Source of the DNA: Octopus vulgaris
Taxonomy: Eukaryota
Length of the DNA stretch: 64,000 nucleotides
Assembly (NCBI GenBank): GCA_951406725.2
Contig: OX597822.1
Span: 25,110,001-25,174,000 of the forward strand
Reading direction: 5' to 3'
Part shown: one piece after another, positions 7,424 to 55,803 of the stretch
How the letters are laid out: every line of letters starts with the position of its first letter
How positions within the stretch are numbered: position 1 is the stretch's first letter
Position numbers and translations under genes: made by a program
The notes under the pieces: generated by a model
The model's input: the letters and a program-made list of their open reading frames with translations, nothing else
Told to the model about the DNA's origin: nothing
Databases searched by the model: none

Positions 7424-7592
7424 AAGGCGGGGAATTGGCAGAAACGTTAGCACGCCGAGCGAAAAGCTTTCCTTAGCGGTATTTCGTCTGCCGCTACGTT
7501 CTGAGTTCAAATTCCGCCGAGGTCGACTTTGCCTTTCATCCTTTTGAGGTCGATAAATTAAGTACCAGTTGCGTATTGGGGTCGATTTAATC
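7424..7592 (+). mobile_element. Nin/Deu-domain-like tRNA SINE (family N), 3'-truncated
   Basis: AGGCGGGGAATTGGCAGAAACGTTAGC head, B box GAGTTCAAATTCC, and core GTCGACTTTGCCTTTCATCCTTTTGAGGTCGATAAATTAAGTACCAG. Confidence 0.85.
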
Positions 7593-7599
7593 GTTAGCC

Positions 7600-11208: not shown

Positions 11209-11352
11209 ATCTGCCGTCGAGAAAGTGCCGCGCATGTATGTCCTATCTCAGAGTTTGAGTGACGAAGTTTACGATTTTTGTGACGACATTGAAATTTATA
11301 TATTAGATTGATTATTTGAAACACACACACACATACATCTAATATGTGTGTG

Positions 11353-11384
<32 letters not shown>

Positions 11385-11980
11385 AATTAATGTAAAAAGA
11401 CTTAACAGCATGTAAAAAGATAGGGCCGTCATTTGATACATACATACAATAAAATACATAGATATCTAGTCTAAATTTAAATTCTTCTAGAAATAACAAA
11501 TATATGGTTGATTCTGCATCTTCTCAAGCATTAACAGCATGGGAAAAATTATTTTTTCTTGTAAAGCCTGATCTTCTTTTTGATAAGAAAACACTCTATA
11601 CACTTCATTTCGGAAGACTGCTATAAACAATGGATGTGAGCGAGAACGTTATGACTGGGCACGCGCGACAGAGTTCAAAGTCAATTTGTGCCAAGTGTCT
11701 TCACTCTGCATCCTTTAGCTCCGTTACCATAGAAACAGTTTCGATACTTTTGATCAAACCTCGTGTATAATATTCAGATCTCGTGTTGATATTATTATCA
11801 GCTAAAACAATACTGGTTTCAAATTTTGGTACACGGTCTTAGCAAATTCGAGGGCGGGACAAGTCGATTAGATCGCCTCCAGTGTCCAACTGGTCCTTAT
11901 TTTATCGATCCCGAACGAATGAAAGGAAAAGTCGACCACAGCAGAATTTGAATTCAGAACATAAAGACTGACGAAATACC

Positions 11981-12196
11981 TATTTCTTTACTACACAGAG
12001 AGGACAAACAAGGACAGACAAACAGATTAAGTCGATTACATCGACCCCAGTGCGTAACTGGTACTTTATTTATCGACCCCGAAAGGATGAAAAGCAAAGT
12101 CGACCTCGGCGGAATTTGAACTCAGAACGTAGCGGCAGACGTAATACCGCTGAGGATTTCGCCCGGCGTGCTAACGATTCTGCCAGCTCGCCGCCT
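11981..12196 (-). mobile_element. SINE family N fused to an older, diverged relative (about 11815-11980)
   Basis: Head, core and tail (small deletion in tail) match 14394-14625. Confidence 0.9.
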
Positions 12197-12455
12197 AATA
12201 AGCGAAAATAATATTGCTATGATTCTTTGCAACGAGCTCGACCAACATGTCATTATGCACCTTATTAATTTACTCTGAGCAGTTGTTAAAACGTTGATGG
12301 ACTAATGAATTCATGAATTCATGATTGTTGTTTTTCCAAGCTTAATATAAAGGACTAATGACAAAACATGCTCAGACGTCTATGTTTATGTGTGCTTATA
12401 TGCATTTGTGCGAGCCTTTGCTTATTATATAGAAACGTAAGTCGCCGCGTCACTA

Positions 12456-13723: not shown

Positions 13724-14393
13724 CACATATATATGCATATATATATGTATGTATATACATATATGTATATGTATATATATACATGTATATATATATATAC
13801 ATGTATATATATATACATGTATATATATATATATATATATAGGTATATGCATATATACATATATAGGTATATGTATATATACATATATATCTATATATGC
13901 ATATGTATATGTGCATATGCATTTATATATACATTATATTTATATATATGCTTATATATATACACATATATGCATACACATATTCTCATTATATTTGCGA
14001 GATCTTTATTTGTATCATTATGATGTGTGTGTGTGCGCGCGTGTGTATATGTGTACACATACAGATACACACACGCGCACGCACCGAAATATTAAGATGG
14101 CTGATTTTAAGTAAAAGTGTTGTCTTTTGCACTTCTAGGTTATCTATTCTTAATTGTATTACTGTGTCTAATACGTATGAAGTTAGGTTTCGTCTGCTTG
14201 CTCAGTGTTGTTTGAATTATAGTTATTGGCGCGTCATGAATGTTTGTCTTCTGTGTTTGAAAGTTTGGGTTATTAATGTGATTAAGTAAATCTTACATTT
14301 TAAAGTTTAATCAAGTGCAGTTTGAATGTTTACGTGTCTGTCATTTTCAGGGGATTTATTTAGGCGAATTTTTCGCCATTTGAATACGTTTCT

Positions 14394-14625
14394 TATTTCT
14401 TTATTGCTCACAAGGGGCTAAACATAGAGGGGACAATCAAGGACAGACAAACGGATTAAGTCGATTATATCGACCCCAGTGCGTAACTAGTACTTAATTA
14501 TCGACCCCGAAAGGATGAAAGGCAAAGTCGACCTCGGCGGAATTTGAACTCAGAACGTAAAGTCAGACGAAGTACCGCTAAGCATTTCGTCCGGCGCGCT
14601 AACGTTTCTGCCAGCTCGCCGCCTT
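14394..14625 (-). mobile_element. Full-length SINE family N with 18-bp target-site duplication
   Basis: CCATTTGAATACGTTTCT occurs at 14376-14393 and 14626-14643. Has a tRNA head, a Nin/Deu-like core and the tail ..TTTAGCCCCTTGTGAGCAATAAAGAAATA. Confidence 0.95.
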
Positions 14626-15654
14626 CCATTTGAATACGTTTCTGGTGCTTTAGTCAAAGAAGCATACTTAATAGTGGTTTTAAATTTTGGTACAAGGCCA
14701 TCAATTTCTAGGGAGAAGATAAGTTGATTATATCGATCCCAGTGTTTAATTGATACTTATGTTATGATGAAAGACAAAATCGACCCCGACGGTATTTGAA
14801 CTCAGAAGGATAAGTCGGAAGAAATATGTTACCTGTAGCACTCATGAGAGACCTCACAAACGACCTGACACATTATATCATCCTCTACCGTCCTCGATTG
14901 GATGCAACACATATTCTGTCTTCTTATTGATAAATATTGGGAGTCAAGACTAAAATATCACGAATATTTTAATTATTTGTTTAATAATAGGCGCCGATAT
15001 TTGTCAGTTCGAGAAGCACTTCTCGACTTCAACTGACGTATGTCAGTTCATAGTCTTTGGTACACTTAGCGGGGTACACTCAGTTTTAAGCAATTAGGGG
15101 TCAGGTTATTGGCCTAAGAATAATATCCTCCCTTCATGCCACCTGTGTTGGAGCCCTTAAAAAGAGATTGAAGAATGATTCTTGTTTTTCCACCCACCGA
15201 CTTCGCCATTTATAAATAGCAAAGAAGATAGCTTCATAAAGGGTTCGATCCAATCGCGTGACATCTTAGGCAAATGCCATTTTCTAATATCTCGGGTCGA
15301 TACATATCTTCGAGTGAAATTAGATTCATGGAGACTGTGTAGAAACCCGGTCGGGTCGATTATAAATGCAATTCAAAAGGAACAACTTTATCTCACAAAC
15401 ATCTGTATCCTCCTTGTCGAACGACGGCGGCCCACCAAATGAACTCTTCACTCAAAATTATTGAAATATTCATCGTGTTGAAGCTTTCTCATATTTCAAC
15501 TCGGAATATTGACCATTAAATCGAATTATTATAGATAGAGGAGAATTGTGACTGAGATATCCGTTAGCAGTGATGATCAGCTACATGCAAGCCTACGCTG
15601 ACAACACACCACCACTTCCGTACGGAGCAACACCATCTCATAATTCACCCCCCC

Positions 15655-16959: not shown

Positions 16960-17188
16960 TATTTCTTTACTACCCACAAGGGGCTAAACACAGAGGGGAC
17001 AAACAAGGACAGACAAACGGATGAAGTCGATTAAATCGACCCCAGTGCGTAACTGGTACTTTATTTATCGACCCCGAAAGGATGAAAGGCAAAGTCGACC
17101 TCGGCGGAACTTGAACTCAGAACGTAACGGCAGACGAAATACGGCTACGTATTTCGCCCGGCGTGCTAACGTTTCTGTCAGCTCGCCA
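16960..17188 (-). mobile_element. SINE family N
   Basis: Near-identical to 14394-14625. Confidence 0.92.
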
Positions 17189-18242
17189 TATATATATGGA
17201 TGGATCAAGACAGTTTGATTCAAATTCGTTGTTACTTTTGAGTTCCAAGCTAGTCGTCAGCCACTTTGTGTACACACACACACACACGCACGCACGCACA
17301 CACACACACTCACACACACACACACACACATGTATGTATATATATTCCATAAAAATAATGTGCATACATCATAACCATACAGATATAGATATACATATAA
17401 GTGCATGTACATACATACATAACAGTAAGTGAATACATATAGTTTTTCACAGATATAGTAATCATGCATACATGTGTTGAAAAAATGCACATTCATGCAC
17501 ACAGATACATACGGAAATATAAACCATGACATAAATAAACACTTATACACATATACACGTACATTGAGTTTTGTTTTTATAAATGGCAAAATATGACACT
17601 ACAAGAATGCATGTTATTTAAGTGTGATGTTATCTCTAAAAGCACAGATTACGTTGCAGATGGAGAAAATTAAAATTGCATAACACTTCATTAGCAAGAT
17701 GATATTTCTCATGTTAACTAATTAATTTTGGCTAATTTAGACACAAGGCCAGCAATTTTCAGAGGAAGGTAGTTAGTCAATTATGTCGACTCCAGTATTC
17801 GACTAGAACTTAATCTTTTTCGACCCCGGAAGAATGAAGGGTAGAGTTAACCTCGGAAAGGTTTAAGCGAAAACTAAATGTCGTAAGTAAATACTGCAAA
17901 ACATTATGTCAATGTTTTAAACGAATCTACCAAAGAAATTATGCGCTAAAATAATAATATTTTCTGTTATAGACGGAAGACCTGAAATTTACTCGACTGG
18001 TATTTAGTTTATCAACCCCAAAAGGAAGAAAGTTAAAGTCGACCTTGATGGGATTGGACTCAGAACACGAAGACTGGCGAAATGTTGCAAAGTATTTTGC
18101 CCGGTGTGCTAACGATTCTGCCAGCTCACTGCCTTAATAATAATGATAATAATAATCCTTTCTACTATAGGTATTAGAACTGAAATTTTGAAGGACGGGA
18201 CTAGTCGATTACATCGACCCCAGTGCGTATCTGGTACTTATT

Positions 18243-18475
18243 TATTTCTTTATTGCCCACAAGGAGCTAAACATAGAGGGGACAAACAAGGACAGACAAA
18301 CGGATTAAGTCGATTACATCGACCCCAGTGCGTAACTGGTACTTAATTTATCGACCCTGAAAGGATGAAAGGCAAAGTAGACCTCGGCGGAATTTGAAAT
18401 CAGAACGTAACGACAGGTGAAATACCCCTAAGTATCTTACCCGGCGTGCTAACGATTCAGCCTGCTCGTCGCTTT
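18243..18475 (-). mobile_element. SINE family N within a cluster of older diverged relatives (about 17730-18240)
   Basis: Tail ATTTCTTTATTGCCCACAAGGAGCTAAAC, core and head all present. Confidence 0.9.
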
Positions 18476-36856: not shown

Positions 36857-37273
<417 letters not shown>

Positions 37274-42262: not shown

Positions 42263-43524
42263 TTGGGTTGTCCGGAAAGTTCGTGCCGATTTATAGTAGC
42301 TTACTTTTTTACTTATTTTAGAAAATGTTTGAGTCCATAAAATAGGATTTGACTACACTTCCATTTAGAGCACAGTTTAAACTATTTTTCTTGGAAGAAG
42401 GTCTTATGTTCCTATAACCTGTGTTAATTCTGGGAGATAAGAAATTTCATTTTCGGCACTTGATGCTTTTCTTTTTCCGTAAAGGGGAAAAATGCCTCAC
42501 AAGCAACCAAAGAAATATGCGCAGTTTACAGTGATGTTTCTTTATCCGAAAGAACTGTACGGAAGTGGTTCGCAAGGTTCCGAGCTGGAGATTGTTGTAT
42601 TATGGATAAGAGCGATCATTCACTACAGATGATGACCAAATCAAGTCATTAATTGAGAATAACCCACATTGCACAACCTGAGAATTGGCAGAAAGACTCA
42701 ACCTATTGAAAATCCGTCGTTCATGAGCACCTGGTAAAGCTTGGTTACACAAATCGCTGCGATGTTTGGGTACCACATGAGTTGAGTGAGAAGAACCTTT
42801 TGGATCGCATTTCCATTTGTGATTTGCTTTATAAACGGAATGAAAACGCACCTTTTTTTAAAGCAAATTGTGACAGGTGATGAGAGATGGATTATCTACC
42901 GAAATGTTCAGAGAAAGCGATCCTGGAGTAAGCGACATGAGCCACCCTTAGCCACCCCAAAAGCGGGTCTTCACCCTAAAAAAGGCTTGCTTTGTGTCTG
43001 GTGGGATTGGAAGGGAATTCTGTACTATGAACTTCTCCCAAGTAACCAGACAATTAATTCTGAACAGTACTGCACACAACTGGACGAGTTGAAAGCAGCA
43101 ATTCAAGAGAAACGCCCAGAATTGGCCAACAGGAAGGGTGTTGTTTCCCAACATGATAATGCAAGACCGCAAGTTTCTTTGGGAACCAGAAAAAATTGCT
43201 GCAACTCGGCTGGGATGTGTTACCCCCACCCTCCATATTCACCAGATATTGCTCCTTCGGATTTCCAATTATTCAGGTCTCTGCAGAATAGTGTTAATGG
43301 TAAAAATTTTAATTCCTTGGATGATGTAAAAAGATACCTTGATGAATTATTTGCCATGAAACCACCTCAATTGTGAGAAAAGGGTATTTTCAAGTTAAAG
43401 GAAAGATGGAGACACATTGTGCAACAAAATGGTTCATATTTGGTTGATTAAAAATGTAATGGTAAGTATTTATTGACCTTTTTCTTTCCTTTAAAAATCG
43501 ACACGAACTTTCCGGATAACCCAA
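42263..43524 (+). mobile_element. Full-length mariner (DD34D) transposon
   Basis: TIRs TTGGGTTGTCCGGAAAGTTCGTGCCGATTT and AAATCGACACGAACTTTCCGGATAACCCAA, with TA target duplication. Confidence 0.96.
42430..43450 (+). pseudogene. Disrupted mariner transposase
   Basis: WVPHEL, IVTGDERW and HDNARP...YSPDIAPSD (34 residues D to D), with several frameshifts and stops. Confidence 0.93.
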
Positions 43525-43997: not shown

Positions 43998-46370
43998 AAG
44001 TTTACTTTCAACTCTAAAACTAATCGGAACGGAGAAATGCTCAAAGACTTCTTAGAGGAATTTAATCTCTACACCTCCAACAACTATTTTATGAAACCAA
44101 AAGGTCAACTTTGGACATTCGAGTCCCCACTTGGTGATAGGGCACAAATTGACTACCTCATCTTTCGAAAGAAGTGGCGCAATAGTGTTAAAAACTCGGT
44201 ATCCTACTCTTCCTTTAGTTCTGTCGACTCTGACCACAGAATTGTATCAGCTACCATTAAGCTTAGTCTTCGCTCATCCAAAAAAGCTAAGCCTCACCCG
44301 ATGAAAACGATCGACTGGGAGGAAGTCTTATCTAACTCCGATATGTCCAAACAATTTACTATTGAGGTCTATAACACATTTCAATCTTTGTCTACTTCTG
44401 AAATAGATGCTGAGAACATTGAAGAAGTATACAGCAGCCTCATCAAATCAACAGAGGAATTTGCACTGGCTACTCTTCCCAAAAAGAAGAGTAGGAGCCA
44501 GAGCAAACCTTCTAATTCCCCAAATGTCATCGAAGCCAGAAACCATCTAAAGTCTATATCACTAGCTTACCACCGTTCTCCATCCCAGTCTCTGAAGATC
44601 CAACTCATAGCTGCCAAGAAGAATCTTGATGAGGCTTACTTGAACGCCGAGGTCGACTTTATCAATGGCTAAATTAGCAAACTATCCAAAGAGCACATTA
44701 ATAAAAAACACCATCTCGCCTGGAAATCTATCAGGCAAAAATTCTGGGTCATCAATTTGAATTAAAGGGGGATCAGCTAAGAAGCGTTTAGAAAATTGGT
44801 CAACTCATTTTAAAAACCTTCTTGGGAAGAATGCCAAAATCCTTGATAACCCCACTCTTCCAAGTGTGCCTATATCAGACACGCTTTTACCATATTTGAA
44901 CTAATAGCAGCCACCAAGCAACTAAAAGCCTCGAAAGTATTTGGTCCCGACAACATCCCAGCTATAATTTGGAAGGATGATAGATTTCACACACTTTTGC
45001 TCAACCTTTGCAACCACACACTTTCCACCTTTGTCGCTCCAAAGATTTGGCACCAATCTCAGATCATCCCAATACCCAAAAAAGGCGATTTATCCCTCGT
45101 CACCAACTACAGGAGTATATCTCTAATGTCAATTGCTGCAAAACTGTACAACAAACTGATTCTAAATCGTCTTGTCCTTTTTGTTGAACCTTTGCTCCGA
45201 AAGAACCAAAATGGATTCAGACATGGGAGCTCAATGCTGAGCCAGATACTATGCCTACGCAGACTTATTGAAGAATCAAAAGCATTTAATCGCGATCTTG
45301 TAATGGTATTTGTAGACTTTTCTAAAGCGTTCTATTCTGTAGATAGGTACAAGATGTTTGAAATCCTTAAGCTCTATGGGATATCAGACAAATTCATCTC
45401 TGCCATCAAGGTCCTCTACACAGATATGTCTTCAACCATCTTAACCCCTGACGGAGAAACATCATCTTTCTCAATCAAAGCCGGAATACTGCAGAGAGAC
45501 ACACTCGCCCCATTTCTTTTCATCATTGTCGTTGACTATGTGCTACGTGTGTCAGTTGATACCATCTCTGGCAAGGGCTTTGAAATAAAACCAAGAAGAA
45601 GTTCCAGACACCCAGCTGAATACTTGACAGACACTGACTTTGCTGACGACATCGCTCTTATCAGTGATTCTCTCTCCAATGCCCAGTCTCTTTTACAATC
45701 TCTCGAACAAGCATCAAATTGTGTAAGACTTTACCTCAATGAGGCCAAGACTGAATATATAAACAAGTGCCTGTCCAACAGTGATTACATCATCCATACT
45801 CTCAACAATGCGCCCTTACATATGGTTTCTGATTACAAATATCTTGGATTATACATATCATCATCTGGAAAATATTTTCTAACTAGAAAGGGTATGGCCT
45901 GGTCAGCCTGTAATGACATGCATAAGATCTGGTCATCAAATCTAAGTAGAGACTTCAAACTTGAAATCTTCAAAGCCACAGTCGAACCAATTCTACTATA
46001 TGGCTCAGAAACCTGGACGTTATCAAAGAAGCTTGAGAGGCGGTTGGATGGAACCTACACTCGCCTCCTTATGAGAGCTCAAAATCTCTCGTGGAAGCGC
46101 CATCCAACCAAAATGCAAATATATTGGAAACTACCACCTGTCCAGCTTGCTGGACATTGTTGTAGAGCTGAAAAGAGGTAATTTCTACTCTTCTCCTCCG
46201 GAAGCCATCTACTCGCAATACCAGAGGGTGCACACTCTCCTACCCTGATGTAATCTCCAGAGATACAGGCATCCAGCAACAGGACCTCCGTAATGCCATG
46301 ATGGACCGTGAAGTCTGGCGTAGCATGGTAAATTCCATTGTCTCGACCACGGTCGAACAATGATGATGAT
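43998..46370 (+). mobile_element. 5'-truncated RTE/RTEX-type LINE inserted in (TATC)n
   Basis: APE C-terminus (QIDYLI, SDHRIV) in ORF 43752-44672. RT (PKKGD, NYRSISL, FVDFSKAF, DFADD) and YGSETWT in ORF 44997-46181. (TGA)n tail. Stops and frameshifts present. Confidence 0.93.
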
Positions 46371-46780: not shown

Positions 46781-49964
<3,184 letters not shown>

Positions 49965-53190: not shown

Positions 53191-53349
53191 CACACACACA
53201 TATATATACGACGGGCTTCTTTCAGTTTCCGTCTACCAAATCCGCTCACAAGGCTTTGGTCGGCCCGAGACTATAGTAGAAGACACTTGTCCATGGTGCC
53301 ACGCAGTGGGACGGAACCCGGAGCCATGTGGTTCGTAAGCAAGCTACTT
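52936..53349 (-). mobile_element. SINE family B; its head remnant is displaced to 55096-55119 by a LINE insertion
   Basis: Ends at ..GTAAGCAAGCTACTT. The continuation ACACAGCCACTCCTACGCCTA lies after the LINE. Confidence 0.88.
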
Positions 53350-55095
53350 TATTTCATGAAAATTCGCCATTAAGGCGTTACATAAAGGGGACATACAAAT
53401 ACAGACAAACATAGGGTGTAGTAGCTTAAAACGTTTTAGTATTTACAATATAATGTGTACAATATTTACAATATAAAGTTTACAAATTTAATATTACACA
53501 GTAGGACAAGGAACCCAGCTATCTGGGTAGAACCTTTACTTCTTGATCCGGCCACACTTACCTGGTGCAAAATATACCCAGCTTGCAAGCTACAGACTTC
53601 CATCTTTTCACAAACATATCTCGTGACAGACACCTCTTCTCCAGCCTAATCTTACTACCGAGGTGGTAACTAAAAAAGTTAACCAACCCCTGGCCGTACG
53701 CGTCTTCCATACTGTTTCTTTCAGTATGGCTACTACGCAGGAAAAACAAGCCTTCCTTTCCCTGCTGAGGAAGGGAGGTGGAACAATCTCAATGATAGAC
53801 TTCGCTGATAGCTGTACTCTTCCATTCACTGACAACAGTTGTTCGGCGAAAGCAATCAGTCCCGATAACTCCGGGCACTCCACGAATGCGTGCAAGACAG
53901 TTTCCCTATCCTGTTCACATTGCGGACAGCTTGTCGCGAACAGGTAACGACGCACGGAAACACTGCCAGGCCAGGGATTTCTGGTAATTATCCAGATACC
54001 CCGGCCCGAACGTTCTCCGGGACAGGTTGATCAACTGATTTTCATCGTAGCCCAGGGTCTCCCCCAAGGCGTCTTCGGACTTAACCTCCACTAACCCGCT
54101 ATAGAAATCTGCGGTGGAACTCCTGTTGCCGGCATTGCCCGCCCGAGAGAGTAGCTGAAGTGCCTGACGGCACTCCAATTGCCAGTCCCAGCCTAGGTCT
54201 CTGCTTGATCCAATTACCAATGTCCGTTAAGGACGTTAATCGCGGAAGGTAGAACCGAACGTGCGGTGACCACACCTGTTCTCCATCCAAGTAAAGCCAG
54301 AGGTGCCTCAACCTTAACGCGAATTTTCGCATCTTCAGTCAAGGCATCCCTAGCCCACCCTTTAGCAGTTTCTGGTAGCAGACAGAGCGCTTTACAAGTG
54401 GCTTTCCTCCTTTCCACAAAAAGTGGGAAGGGATTCTCTCCAACTTGTTCAGCCACAAATCGGGGCAAGGTACCACGGTCAGGCTGTAGGTGACTACTGA
54501 TGCTATGAACATCTGCACCACCTCCGCCCTCCCTAGCAGGGATAACACGCGTCCAGACCAGGTCTGGGTTAGAGCGGTCACCCTGCCGGCCACCTCACTC
54601 CAATTTTTCTCTATCTGGAGGTCTTGACCAATCCAGACTCCGAGCAGGTTAACAGGACCTTCCGTCCAACGCCCCACGACGCTATTGGACAGCATCGGCT
54701 TGCCCCTCCAGGTGCCGAGTTGCAAACCGACCGACTTGTCCTTGTTCACCTTTGCTCCTGCCACCGCCTCATAGCTTTTGATGGCCTCTTCCACCACTGG
54801 AAGCTGGCCTTCATCTGCCACGATGATGGAGATGTCATCCGCGTACGCCTTAGCTCCTCTTCCACACCATAGATCATGCGGTGCGCCCCCTAGTGCCTCC
54901 AACTTCCGCAGCAAAGGCTCAAGAGCCAACACATATAGAAGCGGAGACAGGGGGCACCCCTGACGAACTGAACGCTCGATCCTGAACGGCTTCGAAAGGG
55001 AGCCGTTCACCTTGACCACAGACTCGATGTCGCTATACAAAGCAGCGATCCAACCTCGAAAGGTCGGGCCCAGGCCAGCCTCCCCGAGGACCGCC
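53350..55095 (-). mobile_element. Second 5'-truncated L1/Tx1 LINE (related but distinct family)
   Basis: SVRQGCPLSPLLY, AYADD, GGLGMP and CPQC..ETVLHAFVEC. Frameshifted, and its 3' UTR differs from that of 46781-49779. Confidence 0.93.
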
Positions 55096-55803
55096 GCTAC
55101 ACAGCCACTCCTACGCCTATACGTCTGCAAACATACACAAACATCTACATATGCCCATATTTCAAGCACGTAAACGCATATATAGACACATCGTCATACA
55201 TACACACACATACACATTACACTACACACACACATACATAAACACCATAACATACATACGCATATGTGCAGGAACAAACGAAAGTAACGCTTACAGGGTC
55301 ATTGGACCTGCTAGAAATAGCAGCCAAATCTTCTAATTTCTACGTAAAATTAGATAAAAATAGAATGATGTGGTCTTAGATGCCTGAAATTTAATTAGAT
55401 TGGATGAGCAAGTTTGGAATCACTTAGTCATAGGTCTTTTCCTAGGTTAAGTTTTGCCTGGGATTAAACTATTACAGCATGCACCTACAGGTATGACACA
55501 TTCCTTTTCATCTACTCCCGTCATTCCCCCACATACTTAGAAGCACCTCCACACTCTGCCTCTCTGTCTGTCGGTGTGTGTGTGTGTTTGTGTGTGTGTG
55601 TGTCTTTCTCTCTTACACGCAGGCACACAAACACTCACACGCACACACACACAGACACACTCATATACTCATACATATCCATACGGACTCTTATCAGGGA
55701 GTGGTGTCAGACGGTACATAGGTTTGAAATCGCGAGTTAAGGAAAGGTCCATGAATATCTTAGTGCTCCGCCCTAAAATAATATATATACATATATATAT
55801 ATG

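Follow-up and report, generated by a model that had tools for sequence, protein, structure and literature searches.

What copies a SINE whose 3' terminus is a fixed base, with neither poly(A) nor a simple repeat behind it? The question is raised by an element in a 64,000-nucleotide stretch of Octopus vulgaris DNA (hereafter the window), for which an earlier note had proposed that a Nin/Deu-like SINE shares its 3' end and terminal stem-loop with a Tx1 LINE. We consider it likely that this SINE is copied in trans by the ORF2 protein of an L1/Tx1-like LINE, most likely one of the families that we call D, E, G and H, by way of a shared tail and a predicted hairpin. The SINE copies in the window that bear on the question are listed here by window position.

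14376..14393, target-site duplication copy at the 3' end of the focal SINE, beginning AGAA on the SINE strand
14394..14625, minus strand, the focal SINE itself, a 216C-subfamily monomer at 93.9% identity to the majority sequence (head roughly 14625-14533, body as far as roughly 14458, LINE-like tail roughly 14451-14394)
14626..14643, the other duplication copy, at the 5' end of the focal SINE
16960..17187, minus strand, another SINE monomer, of the 216T subfamily, lying in TA-rich sequence, 96.9% to the majority sequence
11993..12196, minus strand, unit that opens a SINE chain, with part of its tail deleted
11810..11980, minus strand, second unit of that chain, head-less, beginning at SINE position 45, with a sister-family tail at its end
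18160..18470, minus strand, SINE monomer (18243-18468) joined to positions 120-163 plus tail of a sister family

The 18-bp duplication reported around the focal copy is present at both ends of the element (14376-14393 and 14626-14643). The unit is about 230 bp long. A 1-Mb sample of 10-kb stretches, 98 of them at round coordinates and 2 beside the window, contains 91 tail-bearing units, which scales to roughly 250,000 in 2.8 Gb. The element is short, interspersed, high in copy number and non-coding, as a tRNA-derived SINE would be. Its head is weakly tRNA-like (of 40 comparisons, made against 20 genomic tRNAs covering 6 amino-acid types, the best reached z 3.3), A and B boxes aligning at about 37-48 and 70-82 in the same weak comparison, and neither ARAGORN nor Rfam gave a tRNA match on the SINE copies; transcription by Pol III is presumed. 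As for the Nin/Deu label, the body presumably resembles Meta or Inv/alpha domains as much as Nin/Deu. The OK, OR1 and OR2 SINEs are reportedly the subject of Ohshima and Okada 1994. Motif searches with the SINE in three literature supplements returned no match, a motif search of the literature brought up nothing but primers, and a by-eye comparison of its body with the mollusc Nin sequences available in the supplement of PMC4758252 yielded one short common stretch.

Sister SINE families have positions 1-163 in common with the focal SINE and carry other tails at the end. In the window they are represented at 17996-18135, 7424-7593 and 14720-14826, with the same head and body and at least two other tails; each of these tails is predicted to form a short stem enclosing the CTTGT loop known from the focal SINE, an (ATT)n end is frequent, and our searches found no partner LINE for them. 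At a separate locus (L154, near 9750, minus strand), two extra tandem copies of the first 20 bases of the SINE precede a SINE copy.

The LINEs against which the tail was compared, with related arrays elsewhere in the genome, are the following; the letters A to M are our own labels for families obtained from genome searches with 3' ends and with the zf-RVT family.

36857..37165, plus strand, Tx1-like family A 3' UTR, 5'-truncated, followed by (TATC)n
37116..37163, plus strand, family A tail like the SINE tail, 40/47 in a gapped alignment
46781..49779, plus strand, Tx1-like family B copy with RT and zf-RVT, 5'-truncated and frameshifted, between two (TATC)n arrays
53343..55193, minus strand, Tx1-like family C, broken copy inserted in the head of another SINE
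43998..46370, plus strand, RTE-like LINE ending in (TGA)n, negative control for the tail
C2 73.04-73.06 Mb, C22 14.18-14.19 Mb and C27 32.95-32.98 Mb, full-length Tx1-like copies arrayed head to tail at a spacing of about 5.3 kb

The ungapped match between the SINE tail and the LINE end at 37122-37162 comes to 34 of 41 positions, exactly as had been counted by hand. By blastn, the 16960 copy finds 37121-37162 within the window at E=5e-7, and the majority tail scores 57 against the end of family A, where 500 dinucleotide shuffles reach a maximum of 30. The part common to the SINE and the LINE clade is about 45-58 bases long and free of poly(A). Against families A, B, C, D, E, F, G, H and J the tail scores 40-68, and in each case none of 500 shuffles does as well; families K and M score 14-29, a weak or absent match, and family I was missed by its anchor in this scoring. 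That the likeness reflects chance or base composition has some appeal in that the stretch is short and T-rich, and an internal segment of another SINE weakly matches its 5' half over 24-27 nt. The blastn value and the shuffles refute this idea, nine families have the identical terminus, and we give it practically no credence.

Is the LINE side of the match really a LINE? The stretch 36857-37165 is LINE-derived, as had been assumed: in 14 of 19 other genomic copies, ORF2 C-terminal sequence with 47-76% amino-acid identity to the window ORF at 47982-49484 lies directly upstream, and the remaining 5 are cut just upstream of the 3' UTR. Family A is a sister of family B (46.8-49.8 kb) and a different family; B is young, with many intact 1149-aa frames in the genome. 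The ORF2 proteins of the partner families combine an N-terminal endonuclease, a reverse transcriptase and a C-terminal zf-RVT domain, and their best solved structure is human L1 ORF2p (E 2e-69, versus 1e-25 for R2). An ORF1 and an ORF2 with APE endonuclease, RT and zinc domain, closest to L1, are the marks of the L1 clade; among three ORF1 sequences tested for the CCHC knuckle, one was above the cut-off and one slightly below. The named Tx1 relative is a coral protein, 'Transposon TX1 149 kDa', at 36%, with unnamed proteins nearer at 45-52%, and among named relatives the one closest to the LINE protein, at 64%, comes from Argonauta. A target preference of Tx1 type is also seen, family B being followed by a TATC-type repeat in 30 of 30 cases. 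Judged by their sequences, then, the partner families are L1-clade and Tx1-like.

Some further features of these elements were seen in passing. Outside octopods, ORF2 has its closest relatives among unnamed proteins (P0004-P0083), with 43-52% identity as against 36-38% for named animal proteins. Family C sits in the tRNA-like head of another abundant SINE in 14 of 23 copies (window 53343-55193, minus strand; L081-L105). Families K and M (L292-L295, L276, L278) have a stem just before AATAAAG in quite different, AT-rich letters, and in family M2 the same target sequence recurs in long duplications. A derivative of family E, internally deleted to about 2.5 kb, retains ORF1-like sequence and has the first and last parts of ORF2 fused; it forms a non-autonomous family (L307, L312 with L385, L324 with L386). 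The window also holds a mariner-type transposase fragment (42786-43376, plus strand; Pfam Transposase_1).

The families closest to the SINE are not those of the window. Of the last 26 nt of the SINE, 22-26 agree with D, E, G and H, 20-21 with A and 18 with B. A quick RT tree, built without reference Tx1 or L1 and with long branches as its outside rows, places D, E, G and H on one branch and A and B on another (SH-aLRT 99 and 96), and the ORF2 proteins of E, G and H are 71-81% alike and 53-58% like that of B. The proposed sharing of a tail with a Tx1 LINE thus stands as to its L1/Tx1-like origin, and its assignment to the window's families A and B gives way to their sisters; the accompanying hedge, that the driver might be a sister family, was well placed, given the better match of the SINE end to sister families that do not lie in (TATC)n. 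The ungapped 41-nt comparison ties A with E1 (both 34/41), so A stays a candidate on that comparison. The 5' half of the tail, which the family C copy at 53343-55193 has in common with the SINE, is closest to families C and F, and the 3' half to D, E and H. No LINE with the entire SINE tail appeared among the 29 matches of a genome-wide pattern, one that would overlook a partner keeping two C bases before the tail; 3 of these matches have ORF2 upstream (C-like, with another hairpin) and the others are SINE-derived. Since no family has the entire tail, the donor would be an ancestor, a chimera or an unsampled family. The ages of the SINE and the LINEs overlap no more than loosely: the median divergence is 3.3% for the SINE (44 monomers not chosen for likeness to the majority sequence; non-CpG, non-diagnostic sites), and 2.6% for D, 5.6% for A, 7.0% for E1 and 1.0% for H, the medians coming from biased sets.

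The second shared feature is the terminal hairpin. The LINE hairpin reported at 49753-49768 (plus strand, family B) can be folded as claimed, as a prediction; the A/B hairpin is one base out of register with that of the SINE and has a 6-nt rather than a 5-nt loop. In the SINE register, which was picked by eye from the same, related sequences, 89% of cells pair across 16 tails, a score reached by none of 500 shuffles, and three of the four pairs show two-sided changes, mainly contributed by family C, whose hairpin at 53377-53365 carries compensatory changes. The A/B register fails across the tail set. RNAalifold returned no consensus fold, most single stems are 3-4 bp long, and in only 3 of 20 LINE tails is the stem better than in shuffles at p<0.05; the focal copy itself has lost one stem pair through a G>A change. 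Because RNAalifold was negative and the stems are mostly unremarkable, support for the hairpin comes from its position and from covariation in a self-chosen structure among related tails. Recognition of this hairpin by ORF2 would fit these observations.

If the SINE is mobilised by such proteins, its insertion sites should be informative. Duplications were found at 47 of 66 full-length SINE monomers, compared with 7 of 66 when flanks were swapped, and non-simple duplications at 35 of 66 compared with 1 of 66, with a median of 16 bp and a range of 10-26 bp; in 25 of the 35 the duplication begins exactly at the SINE terminus. These duplications fit target-primed reverse transcription, as the earlier note had held. 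Among copies with a visible 5' end, family E has duplications of 15-18 bp in 8 of 21 and family D of 14-22 bp in 7 of 16, so that E and D agree with the SINE in duplication length. The site itself depends on the subfamily, defined by T or C at SINE position 216. The commoner 216T subfamily is GGTA-flanked (GGT after 36 of 84 copies versus 0 of 31 216C copies, p 1.6e-6), A[GA]A follows 3 of 84 216T and 16 of 31 216C copies (p 1e-8), and a TATA flank is common in both alike. AGAA, which makes up 0.7% of sites, stands after 11 of 31 216C SINEs and after 8 of 30 family E copies (three of the eight belonging to one derivative; 5 of 23 under a stricter pattern). The focal copy is a 216C element whose duplication starts with AGAA. 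Among the families sampled, no LINE with the GGTA flank of the 216T subfamily was found. At one locus, an internally deleted, E-derived element lies within a SINE at position 12, with the SINE head upstream and the SINE's own 16-bp duplication enclosing the whole nested locus. A second locus has the same position-12 3' junction and lacks the SINE head upstream, which puts nesting at one of the two loci checked.

Taken together, these data are consistent with the following scheme. Pol III would make the SINE transcript, and an ORF2 protein of D/E/G/H type would bind the tail hairpin, by analogy with L2 pairs as described in the available text of PMC4176376; the predicted hairpin so recognised stands just before the terminal A(A/G)TAAAGAAAT. 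A nick at a short motif would allow priming at the fixed 3' end, the sites being observed and the chemistry conjectural, and would result in the duplication of about 16 bp that is itself observed. Different subfamilies are probably served by several partners, and trans-mobilisation would accordingly draw on several LINE families. Chains would grow as a new copy enters an older one at position 45 or 12 and joins it seamlessly via the shared head.

One may accept Tx1-like proteins as the copying machinery and still doubt the role of the hairpin. The tail could be a 3'-end formation signal, AATAAA plus structure, rather than a signal for reverse transcriptase, and priming would then depend on base pairing between the nicked target and a read-through extension of a few bases. 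Nearly all LINE families have AATAAA about 5 nt before the end, the four-base flank tracks the SINE subfamily in the manner just described, the SINE majority sequence has no four-T run, and the stems are weak, all of which this reading would accommodate. It sits poorly with the two thirds of SINE units that have AGTAAA instead of AATAAA and yet keep the stem, and with the 216 T/C change, which preserves the hairpin pair as G-U or G-C. Beyond the four bases, moreover, unique GGTA sites resemble SINE 49-54 at only one of six positions (12/21 there, p 0.011 uncorrected), and the subfamily effect is equally explicable by different endonucleases of the partners. We regard this account as unlikely, and it can hold together with hairpin recognition. 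A different doubt concerns the clade: the SINE may have captured a Tx1-like 3' end once and be mobilised by another kind of LINE. The lack of a partner found for the GGTA subfamily and the existence of sister SINEs with the same head and body, other tails with the CTTGT loop and likewise long duplications would suit this idea, as would the recent activity of R4/Dong, CR1 and RTE elements in the available part of an octopus annotation (PMC13282606, Table 1). Against it stand the exact shared terminus without a simple-repeat tail, and the duplication length and position-12 junction, both as in family E. The one end of another clade that was compared, that of the window's (TGA)n-ended LINE, which we take to be of the RTE clade, showed no match to the SINE tail (score 14, p 0.39). 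We think mobilisation by another clade very improbable, and copying by L1/Tx1-like ORF2 proteins is the reading that we carry forward.

The SINE has a second unusual property, its organisation in chains. In the 1-Mb sample, chains of 2-6 units with head-less downstream units occupy 30 of 62 tail-bearing sites. Of 94 chain junctions across all loci, 68 have the next unit beginning at position 45 and 13 have it beginning at position 12, and the position-45 restart is preceded by a 216T unit in 61 of 68 cases. In the sample, SINE position 45, which accounts for 1.0% of GGTA sites, holds 10 of 24 GGTA-flanked tails, and position 12, which accounts for 0.6% of AGAA sites, holds 8 of 11 AGAA-flanked tails; the nested E-derived element sits at this same position-12 chain junction. 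Tail-to-position-12 junctions occur in four of four sequencing runs (14100-14420 region) and tail-to-position-45 junctions in three of four (11300-12340 region), which shows that the chains exist beyond this one assembly. The contigs of these runs gave neither an empty site nor a monomer allele at the two regions, in tables dominated by repeats and with the flanks uncovered. Whole chains are flanked by duplications in the cases read by eye. Simple tandem duplication of DNA was rejected as the general source of chains, since their units are only about 90% alike; one identical unit pair, in locus L199, is an exception.

We lean slightly towards a nested origin of the chains, in which successive insertions join seamlessly through the shared head, over their formation in a single event, whether through template jumping from one SINE RNA to another or through read-through transcripts of multimer masters. 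The one-event origin, which is compatible with the SINE-LINE partnership, is a serious contender that we nevertheless place below even chances. It is favoured by the absence of a leftover SINE head with a duplication upstream of the chain (0 of 51), by the frequency of young diagnostic bases in first-unit heads, and by four chains whose first unit is 5'-truncated and has no head. Head-diagnostic bases resemble the main family at 32 of 51 chain sites, compared with 156 of 204 monomers and 32 of 177 sisters, an ambiguous result. Nor are last units of the same family clearly older (3.4 versus 4.0%, n=20, p 0.10); last units are more divergent overall (n=41, p 0.014), a difference that we do not take as proof of age because it partly reflects family. 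What weighs against a single event is the LINE-derived element nested at position 12 in one of two loci, the low likeness among units of a chain, and the last units themselves, which come from several families without near-identical clusters (nearest neighbour at most 96.6%). Of 65 chain ends scored, 31 lack the focal tail and mostly carry a sister tail.

Pairs of this kind have precedents. For the L1 clade, the available text of PMC3472496 and PMC3747384 describes tail pairs of ZmSINE2 and ZmSINE3 with LINE1-1_ZM in maize and sorghum and of SINEX-3_CR with L1-1_CR in Chlamydomonas, three SINE pairs among more than 800 L1-clade families and none of them animal (PMC3472496); Table 1 of Ohshima 2013 likewise lists no animal L1 or Tx1 pair (PMC3747384). 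In these pairs an L1-clade LINE and a SINE have a 3' end of 45-80 nt in common, with a covarying hairpin read as stringent recognition; the octopus SINE resembles them in its L1-clade candidate partner and shared 3' end, and its predicted hairpin would be the counterpart of theirs. Those pairs, however, are plant or algal and the algal one is poly(A)-ended, whereas here the partner is animal and Tx1-like, there is no poly(A) or repeat tail, and at least nine families with varied stems are involved. A SINE mobilised by Tx1 has been proposed before, in that crocodilian SINEU was linked to Tx1-Mar by target and age (Kojima 2015, PMC4494074), and there too a transposon serves as target and SINEs insert in tandem. 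SINEU, as far as the text at hand goes, has snRNA heads, poly(A) tails and tandem copies sandwiching a duplication (PMC4494074); the octopus SINE is tied to its candidate partner by the tail that they share, has its own copies as target and lacks the head in downstream units. The predicted 3' stem-loop recalls UnaSINE/UnaL2, ZfL2-1 and ZfL2-2, for which the available text of PMC4176376 gives experimental proof in the L2 clade with repeat tails, compared with ORF2 binding that is predicted here ('TX1' in that paper appears as the name of a mutant and is unrelated to the Tx1 clade). Octopus annotations report abundant tRNA-Deu and tRNA-Core SINEs and L1-Tx1 families, and describe no partnership between them in the sections available (PMC13282606, PMC8967140). 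Bivalve and gastropod surveys name other SINE partners in the portions available, and a 2024 bivalve paper has no mention of Tx1 in its accessible text. We found no description of this SINE-LINE pair or of its chains in the open literature, the scope of the search excluding Repbase, Dfam and subscription journals. Within that scope, a variant of the stringent pair with an animal, poly(A)-less, Tx1-like partner clade and putative self-nesting is new, its mechanism being the conditional one given above.

A broader and more tentative proposal, which we hold to be possible but doubtful, is that of a self-targeting system, in which an animal L1/Tx1-like clade without poly(A) chooses its templates by a 3' hairpin, and SINE sites fixed by subfamily produce head-replacing chains with mixed tails. 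The octopus genome combines numerous intact ORF2 copies, from several families that differ in stem and target, with a SINE of about a quarter-million units. In the available text of PMC3472496, the ancestral state of the L1 clade, stringent recognition or recognition relaxed by poly(A), is left undecided, and this richness in ORF2 proteins and SINEs makes that question directly testable. The fixed-site chains, in turn, offer a handle on the exchange of SINE modules. If they do arise by self-nesting, the chains would represent a visible route for the swapping of SINE tails, a process that the available text of PMC4824008 calls unexplained.
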